Shown piece by piece: positions 43,654 through 59,831 of a stretch of DNA of 64,000 nucleotides. The stretch is taken from NCBI RefSeq assembly GCF_030384885.1, contig NZ_CP128613.1. One strand, given 5' to 3'. The translations under genes and the position numbers were made by a program. This DNA comes from Escherichia coli (lineage in GTDB: Bacteria; Pseudomonadota; Gammaproteobacteria; Enterobacterales; Enterobacteriaceae). Each line of letters starts with the position of its first letter. Positions within the stretch are counted from its first letter, which is position 1. The notes under the pieces were generated by a model. That model was not told the origin of the DNA and did no database searches. It saw only the letters and a program-made list of their open reading frames with translations.

Positions 43654-46623
<2,970 letters not shown>

Positions 46624-47148
46624 TTGTCATCCCTCCTCAGGGACGTAATAAGTTGATCCATCAATTATCAATGCATAGAAAACATCTTATGTTTCGCGTT
46701 GACGATTATGCGGCGTTATAGAGGAATGGTTCAATTATTCTTTCCCCGAAGTCCGGTTACGGACATATATAAAGCACGGAGAAACACACAAAGAAAAAAT
46801 TGATGAAATCCTAATTTTTCAACAAGTTAACAGGAGTTCCATTTTTAAAGCATATGCATTTAAAATATCAAACACACAAACCAGACAAATAATCTATCAA
46901 TAACCAATGAACTTTAAATCATTCTGTTTTTGATAACGCAATCAAATCCGTAAAAACAATAATCTATAGCTATAAATAAAAATTAAAAATATTTTCAATG
47001 AATATAAATTTATTGCTATTTCTATTACAAAGATGTCCTGACCTCTCATTCATTCTCTTCTTGTCAACATCGCGACAACTTTCGTAAAACATCCCCACCC
47101 TGCTTCAGGTATACTATGCCCCTCGATTCCACAAACATCAGGCAGACC

Positions 47149-48123
47149 ATGACAGATTTAATCCAACGCCCTCGTCGCCTGCGCAAATCTCCTGCGCTGC
47201 GCGCTATGTTTGAAGAGACAACACTTAGCCTTAACGACCTGGTGTTGCCGATCTTTGTTGAAGAAGAAATTGACGACTACAAAGCCGTTGAAGCCATGCC
47301 AGGCGTGATGCGCATTCCAGAGAAACATCTGGCACGCGAAATTGAACGCATCGCCAACGCCGGTATTCGTTCCGTGATGACTTTCGGCATCTCTCACCAT
47401 ACCGATGAAACCGGCAGCGATGCCTGGCGGGAAGATGGTCTGGTGGCGCGTATGTCGCGCATCTGCAAGCAGACCGTGCCAGAAATGATCGTTATGTCAG
47501 ACACCTGCTTCTGTGAATACACATCTCACGGTCACTGCGGTGTGCTGTGCGAGCATGGCGTGGACAACGACGCGACCCTGGAAAATTTAGGCAAGCAGGC
47601 CGTGGTTGCAGCTGCTGCAGGTGCAGACTTCATCGCCCCTTCCGCCGCAATGGATGGCCAGGTACAAGCGATTCGCCAGGCGCTGGACGCTGCGGGCTTT
47701 AAAGATACGGCGATCATGTCGTATTCGACCAAGTTCGCCTCTTCCTTTTATGGTCCGTTCCGTGAAGCTGCCGGAAGCGCATTAAAAGGCGACCGCAAAA
47801 GTTATCAGATGAACCCAATGAACCGTCGCGAGGCGATTCGTGAGTCACTGCTGGATGAAGCCCAGGGCGCAGACTGCCTGATGGTTAAACCAGCCGGAGC
47901 GTACCTCGACATCGTGCGTGAGCTGCGTGAGCGTACTGAATTGCCGATTGGTGCGTATCAGGTGAGCGGTGAGTACGCGATGATTAAGTTCGCCGCGCTG
48001 GCGGGTGCTATAGATGAAGAGAAAGTCGTGCTCGAAAGCTTAGGTTCAATTAAGCGTGCGGGTGCGGATCTGATTTTCAGCTACTTTGCGCTGGATCTGG
48101 CTGAGAAGAAGATTCTGCGTTAA
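47149..48123 (+). CDS. hemB: Porphobilinogen synthase
   Basis: 324 aa from ATG 47149, [37 protein letters not shown]... Confidence 0.95.
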
Positions 48124-51577: not shown

Positions 51578-51879
51578 GATTGTCTGCTCCCCTGTCTTGT
51601 TATGGGAGCAGTATTTCGTTGCTGGTCAGTTTGATAAAGGAATTAAAACGTCTTGTTAAGAACAAAGCGTTTTTAGAAAAAAACTGGCAATGGTTAGCGA
51701 GTTTACGCATTTTGCAGCTTGGGCGAATGTAGCATGCCGATTCACAAACCAGATCAGATGTTCGCTCTCCGGCAAATTATTGCCATTTTGTTACATCCAT
51801 TCCATATCTGTCGCTGGTTGATTGCCAGCGACGCGCCGTGATGCATGATAGGAGAATGAGATAATAAGAGAAGAAAAGT

Positions 51880-52509
51880 ATGATTAGGGTTGTGCTGGTG
51901 GATGACCATGTGGTGGTGCGCTCTGGCTTCGCACAATTACTCTCTCTGGAAGACGATCTGGAGGTCATTGGTCAGTACAGTTGTGCCGCGCAGGCATGGT
52001 CGGCATTAACTCATAATGACGTTAATGTTGCCGTCATTGATATCGCCATGCCGGACGAAAATGGCCTCAGTCTGCTTAAGCGTCTGCGTGCACAAAAACC
52101 GCAATTCCGCGCCATTATTCTTAGCATTTATGACACGCCAACCTTTGTACAAAGCGCTCTGGATGCTGGTGCCAGCGGCTATTTGACCAAACGCTGTGGG
52201 CCGGAAGAGTTAGTGCAGGCGGTGCGCTCGGTCGGGATGGGCGGGCATTATCTCTGCGCCGATGCAATTCGGGCTTTACGCGGCGGCGAGCAACCCGCCC
52301 AGGCGCTGGAAATTCTCACCCCACGAGAACGTGAAGTGTTTGATTTATTAGTCAAAGGCGACAGTGTAAAAGAGATCGCCTTTAAGCTCGAACTCAGCCA
52401 TAAAACGGTACATGTACATCGCGCCAACGTGCTGGGAAAACTGAACTGTCATAGCACCATTGAGCTGGTGCATTTTGCACTCAATCACCATCTGCTGGCG
52501 GGGCATTAA
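51880..52509 (+). CDS. NarL/FixJ-family response regulator, UhpA-like
   Basis: 209-aa ORF MIRVVLVDDHVVVRSGFAQLL... plus C-terminal LuxR helix-turn-helix (KTVHVHRANVLGKL); closely resembles UhpA as I recall it. Confidence 0.85.
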   Translation: MIRVVLVDDHVVVRSGFAQLLSLEDDLEVIGQYSCAAQAWSALTHNDVNVAVIDIAMPDENGLSLLKRLRAQKPQFRAIILSIYDTPTFVQSALDAGASGYLTKRCGPEELVQAVRSVGMGGHYLCADAIRALRGGEQPAQALEILTPREREVFDLLVKGDSVKEIAFKLELSHKTVHVHRANVLGKLNCHSTIELVHFALNHHLLAGH

Positions 52510-54050
52510 TGTCGCGTAACCTTCGTCATTGGGTGATTTCGCTGTTTATTGTGCTGGCCTGGGGAAGCGGCTGGCTGATGTTGTGGACGCTCAGCTTTTA
52601 TCTGACCAATAACGGTCAACAGGCAGTGTTATTTCTGCCGCACGGAGTTTACCTCGCTCTTCTTATTTTGCTCTCTCGCCGTTACTGGCCTGCGTTGGTG
52701 CTCCCCCCTTTGCTGATGATGTTCTGGCTGCACAGCGAGCAACTGTTGAACGGCTATCTCATGCTGGCAACGCCGGTTATTAGCCTGCTTCCTGCCATCC
52801 TTGCACAAAACGTCTGGCACCGTTTTCCACTTTACTGGCAGCGTCTGACGTTGCTGCTAGCCTCAGTAACAGCAGCTTCATTGCTGAATACAGCCATGCT
52901 AACCCCTTTTATGTCAGGCCCAATAATGCTGCCCGGTCTGACCTCATTTACCGGCGGCGTATTGTTGACGCCGTTTGTCTATCTCATCTTTGAGTTTCTG
53001 CGCCAGCAGCATCGCTATCAGCTTCTGAGACTCGATACGCATAATCCCCCCTTGCGAACCTCTTTAATCATCTGGTGTAGCCTATTTTTTATTATTGGTA
53101 TCGGCACCCAGATGGTGTTGTCGCCTGAAATCGAACGCCTGCTGCTGATCGTGGTATTTCTACCCAATGTGGTCATGGCCTGGAAATTTGGCTGGCAAGG
53201 TGGCGTACTCTCGGGGCTTTTGGGCAGCATGATGATCACTATTGCCCGCCAGATTGGCGTGGGCTTTAGTAACCTGGTGGAACTGGAGATTTTTCTCGCA
53301 ACCCAGGCATTGCTGGGAATTGGCCTGGGCATTGCCATCAGTCGCCAGCAACATCTGGCGCTAAACCTGCATCATTACCGTCAGCGACTGGAGGCAGAAC
53401 TGGCAGCACGGCGGGCATTGGCTGAAAAGCTGATCCACACCGAGGAAGACACGCGTAAAAGCCTGGCTCGCGAGCTGCACGACGAAATCGGTCAGAACAT
53501 TACCGCCATTCAGATCCAGTCGCAACTGGTGACGCGGGCACGCGATCCGGCGCAAGTTCATTCCGCAGCTAGCCAAATCAACGAACTCGCCCGCCGCATT
53601 CATCTCTCCACCCGCCAGTTGCTGCGCCAGTTGCGGCCACCCGCGCTTGATGAACTGACATTCCGCGAAGCATTACTTCATCTGATTAATGAATTTGCCT
53701 TTAGTGAACGCGGCATTCATTGCCAGTTTACCTATCAACTAACCACCACGCCAGAAAACGAAACGGTTCGCTTTACACTGTATCGGTTATTGCAGGAGTT
53801 ACTCAATAACGTCTGTAAACACGCCGAAGCCAGCGAAGTGACGATTATTCTGCGCCAGCAGGGAGAGATATTGCACCTGGAGGTCAGCGACAACGGTATA
53901 GGAATCGCCAGCGGGAAAATGACCGGATTTGGCATTCAGGGGATGCGTGAACGCGTCAGTGCCCTGGGCGGCGACTTAACGCTCGAAAAACATAACGGTA
54001 CGCGAGTAATTGTTAACCTGCCCACATTTTTGCAACAAATCGCCGGATAA
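52509..54050 (+). CDS. Sensor histidine kinase, UhpB-like
   Basis: 513-aa ORF: multi-TM N-terminal domain, H-box ELHDEIGQ (HisKA_3 type), C-terminal ATPase; start overlaps the regulator stop (TAATG). Confidence 0.85.
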   Translation: MSRNLRHWVISLFIVLAWGSGWLMLWTLSFYLTNNGQQAVLFLPHGVYLALLILLSRRYWPALVLPPLLMMFWLHSEQLLNGYLMLATPVISLLPAILAQNVWHRFPLYWQRLTLLLASVTAASLLNTAMLTPFMSGPIMLPGLTSFTGGVLLTPFVYLIFEFLRQQHRYQLLRLDTHNPPLRTSLIIWCSLFFIIGIGTQMVLSPEIERLLLIVVFLPNVVMAWKFGWQGGVLSGLLGSMMITIARQIGVGFSNLVELEIFLATQALLGIGLGIAISRQQHLALNLHHYRQRLEAELAARRALAEKLIHTEEDTRKSLARELHDEIGQNITAIQIQSQLVTRARDPAQVHSAASQINELARRIHLSTRQLLRQLRPPALDELTFREALLHLINEFAFSERGIHCQFTYQLTTTPENETVRFTLYRLLQELLNNVCKHAEASEVTIILRQQGEILHLEVSDNGIGIASGKMTGFGIQGMRERVSALGGDLTLEKHNGTRVIVNLPTFLQQIAG

Positions 54051-54122
54051 CCAGGAAAAAGTCTTAGGCATCCCGGATTTTCTCTCATCCTCTTTCACTT
54101 TCATTTTCATATAGTCAGCAAC

Positions 54123-55439
54123 ATGGAGACGACCATGCACGCGCGTTCAGCGAGAGAGATTAATCAATGCTACCGGACATTACGTCCGCGATTGCTGATG
54201 TGCATGATTATTGGCTACGCCGCATTTTATCTGACGCGAAAAAGCGTGAATTACGTCCTTCCGGCGCTGCAAACCGACCTCGGACTGGATAAAGGCGACA
54301 TTGGCCTGCTGGGTTCGCTGTTTTATCTCAGCTACGGATTGTCGAAATTTACCGCCGGACTGTGGCATGACAGCCACGGACAACGCGGTTTTATGGGCAT
54401 CGGCTTGTTCGCCACTGGGCTATTGAACGTGGTGTTTGCCTTTGGCGAATCACTTACGCTTCTGCTTGTGGTCTGGACACTGAACGGATTTTTTCAAGGC
54501 TGGGGGTGGCCACCGTGTGCCCGCTTACTGACCCATTGGTACTCCCGTAATGAACGTGGTTTCTGGTGGGGCTGCTGGAATATGTCGATCAACATTGGCG
54601 GAGCGATTATTCCGCTGATTAGCGCCTTTGCCGCCCACTGGTGGGGCTGGCAGGCCGCGATGCTGACACCGGGGATTATCAGCATGGCATTAGGGATCTG
54701 GTTAACGCTACAGCTTAAAGGCACACCCCAGGAAGAGGGATTACCGACGGTGGGTCAGTGGCGTCACGATCCGCTGGAATTACGTCAGGAACAACAAAGT
54801 CCGCCGATGGGTCTGTGGCAAATGTTGCGCACCACAATGCTGCAAAATCCGATGATCTGGCTGCTGGGTGTCTCTTATGTACTGGTTTATGTGATCCGGA
54901 TTGCGTTAAACGACTGGGGCAATATCTGGCTGACGGAAAGCCACGGCGTCAACCTACTCAGCGCCAACGCCACGGTAATGCTGTTTGAAGTGGGCGGCTT
55001 ACTCGGCGCGTTATTTGCCGGATGGGGTTCGGATTTGCTGTTTAGCGGGCAGCGAGCCCCCATGATTTTGCTGTTTACCCTTGGGTTGATGGTTTCGGTC
55101 GCTGCACTCTGGTTGGCACCGGTTCATCACTATGCCCTTCTGGCTGTGTGCTTTTTTACTGTGGGCTTTTTTGTCTTTGGCCCGCAAATGCTGATTGGAC
55201 TTGCGGCAGTGGAATGTGGACACAAAGCTGCGGCGGGTTCAATCACCGGATTTCTCGGTCTGTTCGCCTATCTCGGTGCGGCGCTGGCAGGCTGGCCGTT
55301 GTCGCTGGTTATCGAACGCTACGGCTGGTCGGGAATGTTCAGTTTACTCTCGGTCGCCGCAGTACTTATGGGTTTACTGCTGATGCCGTTACTGATGGCG
55401 GGCATCACCACCACTCACGCTCGAAGGATAAAACAATGA
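54123..55439 (+). CDS. MFS organophosphate:phosphate antiporter-family protein, UhpC-like
   Basis: 438-aa 12-TM-like ORF; follows the UhpA/UhpB-like pair in uhpABC order. Confidence 0.8.
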   Translation: METTMHARSAREINQCYRTLRPRLLMCMIIGYAAFYLTRKSVNYVLPALQTDLGLDKGDIGLLGSLFYLSYGLSKFTAGLWHDSHGQRGFMGIGLFATGLLNVVFAFGESLTLLLVVWTLNGFFQGWGWPPCARLLTHWYSRNERGFWWGCWNMSINIGGAIIPLISAFAAHWWGWQAAMLTPGIISMALGIWLTLQLKGTPQEEGLPTVGQWRHDPLELRQEQQSPPMGLWQMLRTTMLQNPMIWLLGVSYVLVYVIRIALNDWGNIWLTESHGVNLLSANATVMLFEVGGLLGALFAGWGSDLLFSGQRAPMILLFTLGLMVSVAALWLAPVHHYALLAVCFFTVGFFVFGPQMLIGLAAVECGHKAAAGSITGFLGLFAYLGAALAGWPLSLVIERYGWSGMFSLLSVAAVLMGLLLMPLLMAGITTTHARRIKQ

Positions 55440-56467
55440 AAATGCCCCTTACCTCTACTCTGATTGCTTCTGCCGTTGCGCTGGCAACCTTAACGGGTGC
55501 CGCACAAGCGAAAGGTCGACTGGTGGTCTATTGCAGCGCCACTAATGAAATGTGTGAGACCGAAACCAAAGCGTTTGGCGAGAAATATGATGTGAAAACC
55601 TCGTTTATCCGCAACGGCTCCGGTAGCACCCTGGCAAAAGTCGATGCTGAAAAGAAAAACCCACAGGCTGACGTCTGGTACGGCGGCACCTTAGACCCGC
55701 AGTCGCAGGCCGGCGAGATGGGCCTGTTACAGGCATATAAATCGCCTAACCTTGAACAGATCATGGAAAAATTCCGCGATCCGGCAAAAGTGAAAGGAAA
55801 CCTTTCCTCCGCCGTTTATGTGGGGATCCTCGGGTTTGGCGTCAACACAGAGCGTCTGAAAGAGAAAAACCTGCCTGTGCCGAAGTGCTGGAAAGATCTC
55901 ACCAAACCTGAATATAAAGGCGAAATTCAGATTGCCGATCCACAAAGTTCCGGTACCGCCTACACCGCGCTGGCTACCTTTGCGCAGCTGTGGGGGGAAG
56001 ATCAGGCCTTTGATTATCTAAAACAACTGAACGCCAACGTCTCCCAGTACACCAAATCAGGCATAGCCCCGGCACGTAACGCCGCCCGTGGCGAAACGGC
56101 GATTGGTATTGGCTTCCTGCATGACTACTCGCTGGAAAAAGAACAGGGCGCGCCGCTGGAGTTGATTTCCCCGTGTGAAGGTACGGGCTACGAAATTGGC
56201 GGCGTCAGCATTCTGAAAGGCGCGCGCAACCTCGACAACGCCAAACTGTTTGTGGACTGGGTATTATCAAAAGAAGCTCAGGAACTGGCGTGGAAGAAAG
56301 GGAAGTCTTATCAGATCCTGACCAATACCACCGCCGAAACGTCGCCAAATTCGCTGAAGCTCGACGACCTGAAATTAATCAACTACGACATGGATAAATA
56401 CGGTTCAACTGATGTTCGTAAGGCATTAATTAATAAATGGGTCAGCGAAGTGAAGATGGGTAAATAA
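55436..56467 (+). CDS. afuA: ABC transporter periplasmic substrate-binding protein (AfuA/FbpA family)
   Basis: 343 aa from ATG 55436 (ATGA overlap with upstream stop); signal MKMPLTSTLIASAVALATLTGAAQA; the track ORF 55148.. is an upstream over-extension. Confidence 0.85.
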   Translation: MKMPLTSTLIASAVALATLTGAAQAKGRLVVYCSATNEMCETETKAFGEKYDVKTSFIRNGSGSTLAKVDAEKKNPQADVWYGGTLDPQSQAGEMGLLQAYKSPNLEQIMEKFRDPAKVKGNLSSAVYVGILGFGVNTERLKEKNLPVPKCWKDLTKPEYKGEIQIADPQSSGTAYTALATFAQLWGEDQAFDYLKQLNANVSQYTKSGIAPARNAARGETAIGIGFLHDYSLEKEQGAPLELISPCEGTGYEIGGVSILKGARNLDNAKLFVDWVLSKEAQELAWKKGKSYQILTNTTAETSPNSLKLDDLKLINYDMDKYGSTDVRKALINKWVSEVKMGK

Positions 56468-56535
56468 ACCCGCATTGCGTGCACTTGCCGGGTGCAGCAC
56501 AGACGCCTGCCCCGGCCAACCATACCGGAACTGCT

Positions 56536-58614
56536 ATGTCACAGACACTTGCACTCCATCCCGCGAAAAAGCGGGATGCGATTTTCCTTTGGGTTTTGCT
56601 GGGCTGGCTGGCATTTATCCTGTTGCCGAGCTGGAGTCTCGATTATGGTCTGCTGGAGTCCACGAGTGATGAGATCCTCGAGGCGTACAGCTGGTCGCAT
56701 TTTAATATCAGCTGGCTGTGGTATTTACTCCCGAGTTTGCTGCTGGTTCGCCCGTTTAATGAGGCCAAACGCGAGCAGCGTAGCCGTCATTATTTTGATG
56801 CAGGCTGGGCATTGCTTTGTATAGCGTTTATGGTCATCAGTGCCACCATCGTTGGCCGCGGTCTAGGCTACGCCGCCATCGTGCTGTTTATCGAATTAAG
56901 CGCGATAATGACGCTGGCCTTAACCCGCCTCGAATGGCTGGGTGGCGACCGCTTTGTGATCGGCTCGCTGATTGCGATTGTGGCGCTGATTGGCATTTTT
57001 ATCGTCTGGCCGAGCATCGCCATTTTTATCCCGATGTTCACCAACGACGCGGGAGGGTTCGCCCCACTGGCGTTTATGAATGTGCTCTCGCAGGCACATA
57101 TTGTTCAGGTGATCGTCAACTCCATCGTCTTATCGATAGCGGTGGGTATTGGCTGTACTTTCTTCGGTCTGGTGCTGGCGATATATACCACGCGCATCGC
57201 TAAACGCAGCGCAGTAATCGGCCGCATCTTTTCCATTCTGCCAATTGTCACGCCACCGTTTGTGGTCGGCTTAGGCGTTACGCTCATGATGGGGCGCTCC
57301 GGCTACATAACGGAATTTATGGTGGAGTGGTTTGGGCTGACCAACACCAACTGGCTGTATGGTTTTACCGGGATCTGGCTGGCACAGGTCCTGGCATTTA
57401 CGCCAATGGCTTTTATGATCCTCGATGGGGCCATTAAAACCATTCATCCCTCGCTGGAAGAAGCCTCCTACACCCTGCGCGCCAGCCGCTGGCAAACCTT
57501 TAACGGTGTGTTTGTGCCGTTGTTAAAGCCCGCGCTTGCCAATGCCTTTTTAATCGTCGTGGTACAGTCACTGGCTGACTTCAGTAACCCGCTGGTGCTT
57601 GGCGGCAACTTCGACGTACTGGCGACGCAAATTTACTTCTACATTACCGGCTCGCAGCTGGATTATCAGGCCGCCAGCACCCTTGGCGCTTTCCTGCTGC
57701 TGTTCTCGCTACTGGTGTTCTGCGTCCAGTATATGTGGATTGGTAAACGCTCTTACGTCACGGTTTCCGGAAAGTCCTACCGCGGCGATGTCCAGCCACT
57801 ACCGGTCACCCTGGTGTGGAGCGTGGTCGCCATACTTGCGATATGGATTGCCTTTAACGCCCTGCTCTATGGCAGCATTTTCTACGGCAGCTTCACCGTG
57901 AACTGGGGCGTAGACTACACCCTAACGCTGGATAACTTTATCAAGTTATTTGGTCAGGGGATGAGCGACGGCGCATGGCCTTCACTGTTAGATACCTTGC
58001 TCTACGCCGGGATTGCCGCACCCATTACCGCTATTTTTGGCCTGCTCATCGCCTGGGTGGTGGTGCGCCAACAATTCAAAGGCAAAAAGACCATCGAGTT
58101 CACCACCATGTTGTGCTTTGCCGTACCGGGTACAGTGGCGGGTGTCTCGTATATTCTTGCCTTTAATAGCGCCCCAGTCTATCTCACCGGAACGGCAGCA
58201 ATTGTGATTATCTCGATGGTGATGCGCAACGTTCCGGTGGGTATTCGCGCCGGGATTGCAGGTCTGGGGCAGATCGACAAATCGCTGGATGAAGCCTCAC
58301 TTAGCCTGCGTGCGGGTTCCCTGCGAACCATTACGCACATTTTACTGCCGTTGTTACGCCCAGCTATTCTCTCGGCCCTGATTTACAGCTTTGTGCGGGC
58401 TATCACGACGGTCAGCGCCATCGTCTTTCTCGTCACGCCGGACACACGCGTGGCAACCGCCTACATCCTTAACCGCGTAGAAGACGGCGAATATGGCGTA
58501 GCCATCGCCTACGGTTCGATTCTGATCGTGGTGATGCTGGCGATTATTTTCCTCTTTGACTGGCTGATCGGTGAAGCACGTATTTCCCGTTCTAAAGCCA
58601 AAAACCAGGCGTAA
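56536..58614 (+). CDS. afuB: ABC transporter fused permease (AfuB/FbpB family)
   Basis: 692 aa from ATG 56536 (track's GTG at 56479 is possible); two tandem permease domains. Confidence 0.85.
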
Positions 58615-58625
58615 TGGAGCGCACT

Positions 58626-59672
58626 ATGAGTCAGAAAAATTTTGTGGAACTGCGCAACGTCACTAAACGATTCGGCAGTAATACGGTTATCGACAATATC
58701 AATCTCACCATCCCACAAGGGCAAATGGTGACGCTGCTCGGTCCTTCCGGATGCGGCAAAACCACCATTCTGCGTCTGGTTGCCGGGCTGGAAAAACCGA
58801 GCGAAGGGCAAATTTTTATAGATGGCGAAGATGTCACGCATCGTTCCATTCAGCAACGCGATATCTGCATGGTGTTTCAGTCATACGCTCTGTTCCCACA
58901 TATGTCGCTGGGCGAAAACGTTGGCTATGGGTTGAAAATGCTTGGCGTGTCGCGTAGTGAAGTGAAGCAGCGGGTGAAAGATGCGCTAGCAATGGTGGAT
59001 CTGGAAGGATTCGAAGACCGCTATGTCGACCAGATTTCCGGTGGTCAGCAACAGCGTGTGGCTCTGGCCCGTGCGTTGATCCTTAAGCCTAAAGTGCTGC
59101 TGTTTGATGAGCCGTTAAGTAACCTCGATGCCAACCTGCGTCGCAGCATGCGCGATAAAATCCGCGAGCTGCAAAAGCAATTTAACATCACTTCGCTCTA
59201 TGTGACTCACGATCAAAGTGAAGCTTTCGCGGTGTCCGACACCGTGTTGGTGATGAATAAAGGTCACATCATGCAAATTGGCTCGCCGCAGGATCTCTAT
59301 CGTCAGCCCGCCTCCCGCTTTATGGCAAGTTTTATGGGCGACGCCAACCTGTTCCCGGCGAACTTTAGCGAAGAGTATGTCGATATCTACGGTTATCGCC
59401 TGCCGCGCGCGGCGCATTTCCCGGCGCAAGGTAGCGGCACCGTCGGCGTTCGCCCGGAAGCCATCACCTTAAGCAATCACGGCGAAGAGAGTCAGCGTTG
59501 TGTTATTCGCCATGTCGCCTACATGGGGCCGCAGTACGAAGTGACCGTAGAATGGCATGGTCAGGAGATTTTATTGCAAGTCAACGCCACCCGTTTACAG
59601 CCCGATATTGGTGAACACTATTACCTCGAAATCCATCCTTACGGGATGTTTGTTTTAGCGGATGCGGCATAA
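58626..59672 (+). CDS. afuC: ABC transporter ATP-binding protein (AfuC/FbpC family)
   Basis: 348 aa from ATG 58626, [16 protein letters not shown]...; Walker [10 protein letters not shown], signature [15 protein letters not shown]. Confidence 0.9.
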
Positions 59673-59754
59673 AAATAGCACATAAACGGTCCCAACCTGT
59701 CTTGAGAGACCGTTCACCTGTTTAGACGTCGGACAACAATTATTCTCCGGTGTT

Positions 59755-59807
59755 ATATACTATAGGGGGGTATGCATTGACATATGGCATACCCCCCTAT
59801 AGTATAT
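59755..59807 (+). promoter_or_regulatory. frmRAB promoter embedded in a perfect 21-11-21 inverted repeat (candidate FrmR operator)
   Basis: ATATACTATAGGGGGGTATGC - attgacatatg - GCATACCCCCCTATAGTATAT; TTGACA at 59777-59782 in the spacer, TAGTAT 17 bp downstream in the right arm, frmR ATG at 59832. Confidence 0.8.
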
Positions 59808-59831
59808 TGCGTGCAGATGATGAGGTGCGAA

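Follow-up and report, generated by a model that had tools for sequence, protein, structure and literature searches.

The 64,000-nucleotide stretch of Escherichia coli DNA analysed here (the window) carries, at positions 51880–59672, six genes in which a trio of UhpA-, UhpB- and UhpC-like proteins is followed by the ATP-binding cassette (ABC) importer AfuABC, with a predicted promoter resembling that of uhpT in the gap between the kinase gene and the gene for the UhpC-like protein, a member of the major facilitator superfamily (MFS). All six open reading frames (ORFs) are present on the + strand and match what RefSeq annotates on an E. coli chromosome of 100% identity (strain 2013C-4282), where they are named, in order, response regulator, MASE1 sensor kinase, 'uhpC', ABC substrate-binding protein, ABC permease and 'fbpC'. 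The locus is flanked by tauABCD on one side and frmRAB on the other. An earlier reading of the window (the original prediction) had described six co-oriented genes with tight junctions at these coordinates, and this description stands: the regulator and kinase genes meet at TAATG, and the stop codon of the MFS gene overlaps the start of afuA in ATGA. The genes are as follows.

51880–52509, + strand: UhpA-like response regulator of the NarL/FixJ family, orthologue of FusR (Z0463/ECs_0418)
52509–54050, + strand: UhpB-like sensor kinase with MASE1, HisKA_3 and HATPase domains, orthologue of FusK (Z0462/ECs_0417)
54123–55439, + strand: UhpC-type MFS protein of the organophosphate:phosphate antiporter family, orthologue of Z0461/ECs_0416
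55436–56467, + strand: AfuA, periplasmic sugar-phosphate-binding protein
56536–58614, + strand: AfuB, fused double permease of 692 aa
58626–59672, + strand: AfuC, ABC ATPase with a TOBE-type C-terminus

This gene cluster is already known: it is the genomic island OI-20 of enterohaemorrhagic E. coli (EHEC) O157:H7, made up of FusR, FusK, Z0461 and AfuABC, an identification based on orthology and on the tauA/frmR site shared with Z0462/Z0463. The original prediction had missed the island, whose kinase and regulator have been published as the fucose sensor FusKR and whose MFS protein as a fucose importer. The window has its locus and site in common with OI-20 of EHEC O157:H7 and Citrobacter rodentium (FusKR, Z0462/Z0463; Z0461; AfuABC, Z0460–Z0458), an island whose sources are Pacheco et al. 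2012 (Nature) and Sit et al. 2015. In the O157:H7 strain Sakai (L083 in our set of loci), the same six genes run from ECs_0418 to ECs_0413 at the same tauA/frmR site, with 94.3% DNA identity and zero indels across window positions 51600–59800, so that the window holds a divergent allele from another strain. Protein identity to Sakai is 95–99% (regulator 95.7%, kinase 95.3%, MFS protein 99.1%, AfuB 97.1%, AfuC 99.4%), the kinase and regulator being the most divergent at 95% and the MFS protein and AfuC the least at 99%; such divergence at a shared site suggests either old alleles or separate acquisitions.

The whole module is found in ~518 of 5426 complete E. coli genomes, a broader carriage than the O157:H7-only distribution stated in a recent review (PMC11644481). 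Since canonical uhpABCT is kept in 5415 of the 5426, the OI-20 module is a second, accessory system beside uhpABCT rather than its replacement. The earlier claim that AfuABC is present instead of UhpT is therefore right for this locus, among whose ORFs and annotations there is no uhpT-like gene, and wrong for the genome as a whole.

Comparison of the three upstream proteins with canonical UhpABC supports their assignment as a Uhp-type trio of full-length UhpA, UhpB and UhpC homologues. The regulator is 49% identical to K-12 UhpA, which is also its top NCBIfam model (194 bits, against an equivalog cut-off of 258), and it classifies as a UhpA paralogue, not an equivalog; its recognition helix, KTVHVHRAN, is identical to that of UhpA and invariant across orthologues (77–81 sequences). 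The kinase aligns with K-12 UhpB from end to end, MASE1 membrane domain included, at 33% identity, and again has UhpB as its top NCBIfam model (373 bits, cut-off 408); its homologues carry the Pfam domains MASE1, HisKA_3 and HATPase_c, and it classifies as a kinase of the UhpB type, without a periplasmic sensor domain. UhpB needs UhpC for ligand sensing, and the MFS gene of the window is the next gene 3' of the kinase gene, in the manner of a UhpC-type co-sensor. With 54% identity to K-12 UhpC and 29% to UhpT, the MFS protein is the sole member of the trio above its cut-off, passing the NCBIfam UhpC subfamily model with 589 bits against 564. The equivalents of the phosphate-binding residues R46, K82 and R275 of UhpT are invariant in its orthologues (78 sequences), and the UhpT-specific D388/K391 pair is replaced, as it is in UhpC.

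The downstream genes probably encode a sugar-phosphate importer in this allele as well. AfuA matches the sugar-phosphate-bound AfuA structures PDB 4r72–4r75 at E = 3e-170 and 8x1a at 2.5e-173, whereas its matches to structures of the iron-binding proteins FbpA, HitA and SfuA reach E values of only ~1e-8 to 1e-12. Its sugar-coordinating residues H229, D230 and E253 (precursor numbering) are invariant in 81 sequences, the sugar-coordinating motif of mature AfuA being H205, D206 and E229 (PMC4546632). AfuB contains two permease stretches by NCBIfam and is annotated as an ABC transporter permease in RefSeq. The AfuABC system of Actinobacillus pleuropneumoniae (PDB 4R72–4R75) has the same sugar-coordinating His/Asp/Glu residues in AfuA, the same fused AfuB permease and an AfuC ATPase; the comparison covers AfuABC, and in the window locus afuABC follows a UhpC-like gene and a Uhp-like two-component pair, to which it is coupled in translation. 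An iron importer of the FbpABC/SfuABC kind, as implied by the annotation 'fbpC: ferric ABC transporter', is rejected by the AfuA structure matches together with the published work (PMC4546632). The 'ferric' label stems solely from the model for the ATPase; AfuC scores 698 bits against the cut-off of 496 of NCBIfam PRK11432, a 'ferric' FbpC model. The AfuABC systems of A. pleuropneumoniae and C. rodentium bind or transport sugar phosphates including glucose-6-phosphate (G6P) and fructose-6-phosphate (F6P) (PMC4546632), and AfuABC was shown to be an importer of hexose and heptose phosphates (G6P, F6P and sedoheptulose-7-phosphate, S7P) that sits on OI-20 beside FusKR (Sit et al. 2015, PMC4546632). 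Both the view of AfuABC as a hexose-phosphate importer and the family assignments of the original prediction, with UhpA, UhpB and UhpC as best NCBIfam models, were thus borne out.

The mechanical ORF list gives both afuA and afuB longer GTG starts than the annotated ATG starts. Between these two genes lies a G+C-rich spacer of 68 nt (56468–56535, ACCCGCATTGCGTGCACTTGCCGGGTGCAGC...) that may form a hairpin; hairpins between binding-protein and permease genes in ABC operons commonly raise the yield of the binding protein over that of the permease.

To place the locus among its relatives, we used a scan with one genome per species and an alignment of AfuA, in which the best 80 of at least 583 relatives were kept, all of them from Enterobacterales; the genera include Citrobacter, Raoultella, Enterobacter, Serratia, Yersinia, Photorhabdus, Xenorhabdus, Proteus, Morganella, Providencia, Pectobacterium, Rahnella and Buttiauxella. 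Among these best 80, each locus whose upstream DNA reaches far enough carries regulator, kinase, MFS protein, AfuA, AfuB and AfuC in this order on one strand, down to a kinase identity of 53%. Grimontia (Vibrionaceae) has the six genes in the same order, with a kinase 39% identical by HMMER and 37% by tblastn, and so does a contig from a metagenome run, with a kinase 51% identical. More distant UhpB-like kinases occur in regulator–kinase–MFS trios without afu genes, or beside a divergent uhpT-like gene. The kinase–MFS gap measures ~70–100 bp in nearly all loci (72 bp in the window), and the MFS–afuA gap mostly −4 to +60 bp, gap sizes from which it follows that a regulated promoter should precede the MFS gene.

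The gap between the kinase and MFS genes was aligned from 72 loci and contains four conserved blocks, the distances between which are almost free of indels. In the window they read as follows.

54011–54026, + strand: CRP-like site TGTTAACCTGCCCACA, within the final codons of the kinase gene, at about −103.5 for a transcription start near 54122
54050–54069, + strand: UhpA-box palindrome ACCAGGAAAAAGTCTTAGGC, centred ~51 nt upstream of the −10 start, at about −63
54083–54090, + strand: conserved box TCTCATCC, at about −39 to −32
54110–54115, + strand: predicted −10 hexamer TATAGT of the MFS–afuABC promoter, a conserved TAnnnT column at fixed spacing from the upstream elements

The CRP-like site agrees with the consensus at 8/10 positions in 71 loci and at 9/10 in 3 loci, and in 69/80 loci its centre lies 91.5 nt from the start of the −10 hexamer, a distance that we also measured on the sequence of the K-12 uhpT promoter between the CAP-like site (CGTGA-N6-TCACC) and TACAAT. 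Across the kinase gene, conservation at third codon positions is highest over this site (0.93; gene mean, 0.57), a maximum that points to a constraint at the DNA level beyond that of coding. The palindrome is kept in 75 loci; its core reads CCAGGAAAAAGTCTTAGG at 54051–54068 in the window and CTAGGAATTATTCCTAG in other genera. In the third block, CTCAT begins 26 nt before the −10 start in 75/80 loci, and the block is matched at the same offset in the K-12 uhpT promoter (TCTCAGG) and in Grimontia (TCTGAT); it could be a weak site for the regulator or an unusual −35 region. The predicted promoter is thus like that of K-12 uhpT in all three distances, with a CRP-like site at 91.5 nt, a palindrome of the CTAGGAA...TTCCTAG type at 51–52 nt and a TCTCA box at 26 nt upstream of the −10 start. 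A generic scan of the window for sigma-70 promoters and terminators gave no more hits than shuffled sequence and did not report the kinase–MFS promoter, because the latter has no consensus −35.

Transcription would start near 54122. The annotated MFS start, ATG 54123, follows the predicted −10 hexamer by only ~8 nt and probably makes the gene four codons too long, the true start being ATG 54135, because the Shine-Dalgarno sequence GGAG is conserved at 54125–54128, ATG 54123 is unconserved in other species, and Sakai uses the shorter form (annotated there at 434 aa). Because the MFS gene and afuA overlap, MFS–afuABC is probably a single regulated operon. Supplementary data showing that Z0459 (afuB) and Z0461 are both up-regulated in bovine gut contents (PMC6199705 supplement) fit such an operon and lend it weak support. 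The UhpC-like gene would then belong to the regulated output operon and not to the sensor operon, which sets the locus apart from UhpABC–UhpT of K-12 in the placement of the promoter, here between kinase and MFS genes. This qualifies the earlier proposal that a three-gene sensor module is joined to AfuABC: the linkage is seen in all sampled loci with enough upstream DNA, and a predicted uhpT-type promoter precedes MFS–afuABC, but the UhpC-like gene has to be allocated differently.

We cross-checked the palindrome with a position weight matrix trained solely on the afu-linked palindromes. Across the 64-kb window, the matrix gave one match, at 54050, with a score of 26.4 against 10.4 for the next best, and 600 kb of shuffled sequence reached a maximum of 12.3. 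In a 12-kb K-12 uhp region there was likewise one match, ACTAAGAAATTTTCCAGGTT in the uhpT promoter (score 17.7), whose centre lies 52 nt upstream of the −10 start, compared with 51 nt for the window palindrome, and which we take to be the strong UhpA site centred near −64. Positions of the K-12 uhpT sites relative to the transcription start are reportedly given by Merkel et al. 1995 and Olekhnovich & Kadner 2002, with CAP near −103.5. Over 1.24 Mb of loci, all but three of the matrix scores of at least 14 fall in the kinase–MFS gap. Two other candidates for the UhpA site in uhpT, TCCAGG-N5-CCTGGA and GGCAAAAC...GTTTTGCC, were dropped, the matrix scan giving CTAAGAAATTTTCCAGG as the homologous element; a crude inverted-repeat search often chose irrelevant repeats, and the matrix was used instead.

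In other Uhp-like loci, a matrix box also precedes the output gene, be it a divergent uhpT-like gene (L085), an MFS gene (L087) or a UhpC gene (L089). The last two, in which the box stands directly before the MFS gene with no separate uhpT nearby, show that the MFS protein itself could be an output, and they favour an account in which it is mainly a UhpT-like antiporter co-induced with AfuABC while the kinase senses a cytoplasmic or membrane cue through MASE1. The MFS protein of the window is, however, far nearer to UhpC than to UhpT and, like UhpC, lacks the D388/K391 pair of UhpT, and we regard this account as very unlikely. Locus L089 (Yersinia aleksiciae CP011975.1, 2066304–2079833) holds a canonical-type UhpA/UhpB/UhpC trio with 67%, 47% and 65% identity to K-12, with its own CRP-like site (TGTGATCCTTCCCACA) and UhpA box within the UhpB–UhpC gap and no adjacent uhpT; K-12, where uhpABC is constitutive and uhpT has a promoter of its own, therefore represents just one of several layouts.

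Homology, conserved synteny and a promoter geometry in common with uhpT are what these comparisons establish directly, and they suggest, as the most economical reading, a Uhp-type three-component sensor with MFS–afuABC as its output. We consider it probable, though by no means assured, that the six genes act together as a single module for sensing and uptake that is paralogous to Uhp and whose output promoter drives MFS–afuABC. In such a circuit, the regulator and the MASE1 kinase would be transcribed from the tauA-side intergenic region, and the kinase would take its cue from whether the UhpC-like MFS protein has bound ligand, as UhpB does with UhpC; this MFS protein retains the Arg/Lys/Arg phosphate-binding triad. 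External hexose phosphate would lead to phosphorylation of the regulator, which has exactly the recognition helix of UhpA and would bind the 54050–54069 palindrome and, together with cAMP-CRP at 54011–54026, activate the −35-less promoter in the kinase–MFS gap. This promoter would transcribe the MFS gene, afuA, afuB and afuC as one operon, and the outcome would be ATP-driven uptake of G6P, F6P and S7P along with positive feedback on the co-sensor, the feedback following from the presence of the co-sensor gene inside the output operon. Four points of this circuit are what we infer: its signal, presumed from homology to be hexose phosphate; that the regulator activates and does not repress; where transcription starts; and how the operon is built. 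Because their recognition helices are identical, UhpA and FusR may also activate each other's promoters, so that cross-talk at both is plausible. In the searchable literature, outside which the primary FusKR paper lies, we found no paper that proposes control of afuABC by the Uhp-like trio or describes a uhpT-type promoter at this place.

Several points weigh against a hexose-phosphate circuit of this kind. The links of its promoter to the regulator, to hexose phosphates and to CRP are predictions, as are the transcription start and operon structure. The palindrome is imperfect in E. coli and Citrobacter (CCAGG...CTTAGG), and the standard box is missing in Xenorhabdus. Both regulator and kinase score below the curated NCBI equivalog cut-offs for UhpA and UhpB, and their specificity may therefore have shifted. 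L-fucose is the published signal of FusK, and two reviews (PMC11644481 and PMC6199705) report FusR as a repressor of z0461, ler and the fuc genes, a repression that does not fit the class-I activator position (~−63) of the palindrome.

The published model could be the whole story: FusK would directly sense L-fucose released from mucin, phosphorylated FusR would repress ler and with it the enterocyte-effacement locus (LEE), z0461 and the fuc genes, Z0461 would help fucose import, and AfuABC would be an independent neighbour. This model, set out in PMC11644481, PMC4810492 and PMC6199705, where Z0461 is named a fucose importer, rests on direct experiments, among them a 2026 study that found fucose-dependent LEE repression gone in a fusKR deletion mutant (PMC12976359). 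Autophosphorylation of FusK in response to L-fucose is described in the literature (PMC11644481 and PMC4810492). In favour of the model, too, FusR is reported as a repressor of z0461, whereas a site at about −63 suggests activation, and the window genes are 95–99% identical to the O157:H7 proteins at the same site. Against it stands the nature of the sensor, since the kinase is a MASE1 protein and a full-length homologue of UhpB, which needs UhpC for ligand sensing, and since Z0461 belongs to the organophosphate antiporter family with an invariant phosphate-binding triad that is unexpected for a neutral deoxy-sugar. The six-gene order is also kept in the insect- and plant-associated Photorhabdus, Xenorhabdus, Pectobacterium and Rahnella and in Vibrionaceae, where neither mucin fucose nor the LEE has an obvious place, and the overlap of the MFS stop with the afuA start speaks against AfuABC as a mere neighbour. 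Finally, the conserved operator is similar to a UhpA box, whereas the FusR site published for the ler promoter is not similar to that operator and scores −6.3 with the matrix. We judge it unlikely that the published model accounts for the locus in full.

The fucose and the sugar-phosphate views can coexist if control of the LEE is specific to a lineage or if the assays of the kinase left out its MFS partner, and control of the LEE virulence island by fucose through FusKR may be such a lineage-specific addition. A more far-reaching version of our favoured reading, which we put forward tentatively as possible but short of probable, is that FusR, FusK and Z0461 would be a second Uhp-type sensor of external sugar phosphates and not primarily a fucose sensor, that their ancestral direct target, kept throughout Enterobacterales and in Vibrionaceae, would be the CRP-assisted, uhpT-like z0461–afuABC promoter, and that the fucose and LEE phenotypes of EHEC would be lineage-specific, indirect or the product of an assay of the kinase without the MFS protein.

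The wiring could also be as we propose with another organophosphate as the signal, for example S7P, F6P or some other phospho-sugar, towards which the UhpC-like co-sensor would have diverged, in which case the module would complement UhpABCT. Identities of only 54% to UhpC and 33% to UhpB, and the scores of regulator and kinase under the equivalog cut-offs, leave room for this, AfuA binds S7P besides G6P and F6P (PMC4546632), and the coexistence of the module with a canonical-type Uhp trio, in Yersinia aleksiciae as in E. coli, suggests that the two are not redundant. The MFS protein nonetheless lies above the NCBI UhpC subfamily cut-off; we hold a different signal to be quite unlikely.

The locus resembles UhpABC–UhpT of E. 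coli K-12 in its order of regulator, MASE1 kinase and UhpC-type MFS protein and in its recognition helix, and differs in that its proposed output is the ATP-driven ABC importer AfuABC in place of the antiporter UhpT, that its regulator and kinase fall under the equivalog cut-offs, and that the published signal for its kinase is fucose. The literature on OI-20 differs from our reading in treating the fucose sensor FusKR and the sugar-phosphate importer AfuABC as neighbours and not as one circuit. Two-component sensing of G6P is found in HptRSA of Staphylococcus aureus and SpsRK of Bacillus cereus, where a binding-protein-like component senses and a UhpT-type MFS protein transports. These roles are the reverse of those proposed here, where the MFS protein would sense and the binding-protein-dependent ABC system would transport, and the HptRSA and SpsRK proteins in those roles are not homologous to those of the window. 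As the window system would, both detect G6P outside the cell with a two-component system, helped by an accessory protein of the membrane or periplasm, and induce a transporter of sugar phosphates; for SpsRK this is described in PMC4049939.

The locus and the function of AfuABC were known before; the predicted uhpT-type promoter, of which the searchable literature gave no description, is the main sequence-level support for a Uhp-variant wiring. FusKR is a widely cited example of a pathogen reading a sugar of host or microbiota origin. It is also in use as a therapeutic target (PMC12976359). Were it a hexose-phosphate sensor coupled to AfuABC, its signal, its direct regulon and the need of C. 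rodentium for AfuA in the gut would have to be re-read, and the Uhp sensing cassette would appear as one that can be plugged into different classes of transporter, with an MFS protein that senses and an ABC system that transports, the reverse of Gram-positive HptRSA. Cross-talk with UhpA at the uhpT promoter, were it to occur, would also bear on the fosfomycin uptake that G6P induces.

Elsewhere among the loci, the circuit appears rewired in Xenorhabdus (L079 and L081), where the CRP-like site is absent along with the standard box, a different palindrome, CAGAAATCATTTCTG, occupies the equivalent place in the kinase–MFS gap, and the MFS gene and afuA stand ~0.85 kb apart, with an AT-rich spacer between them. 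In Entomohabitans teleogrylli (L027, 13613–14560), a second palindrome similar to the UhpA box, TCCAGGAAATTTTCCTGG (score 16.8), lies ~180 bp upstream of a − strand ORF with class A acid-phosphatase motifs (RP, PSGH, SR...H...D), 2 kb downstream of afuC; the regulator may control a periplasmic phosphatase there as well.

On the frmR side of the window locus, a long, near-perfect palindrome, ATAGGGGGGTATGC-N11-GCATACCCCCCTAT, at 59753–59809 (core 59762–59800), stands just upstream of frmR. A strong promoter-like site, TTGACA-17-TAGTAT, overlaps with this palindrome, presumably the operator through which FrmR acts on frmRAB. Farther away in the window, G+C content dips to 0.38–0.41 at ~46000–47500, where the autotransporter gene ehaB ends and the ehaB–hemB intergenic region of 525 bp lies, against ~0.52–0.58 nearby.

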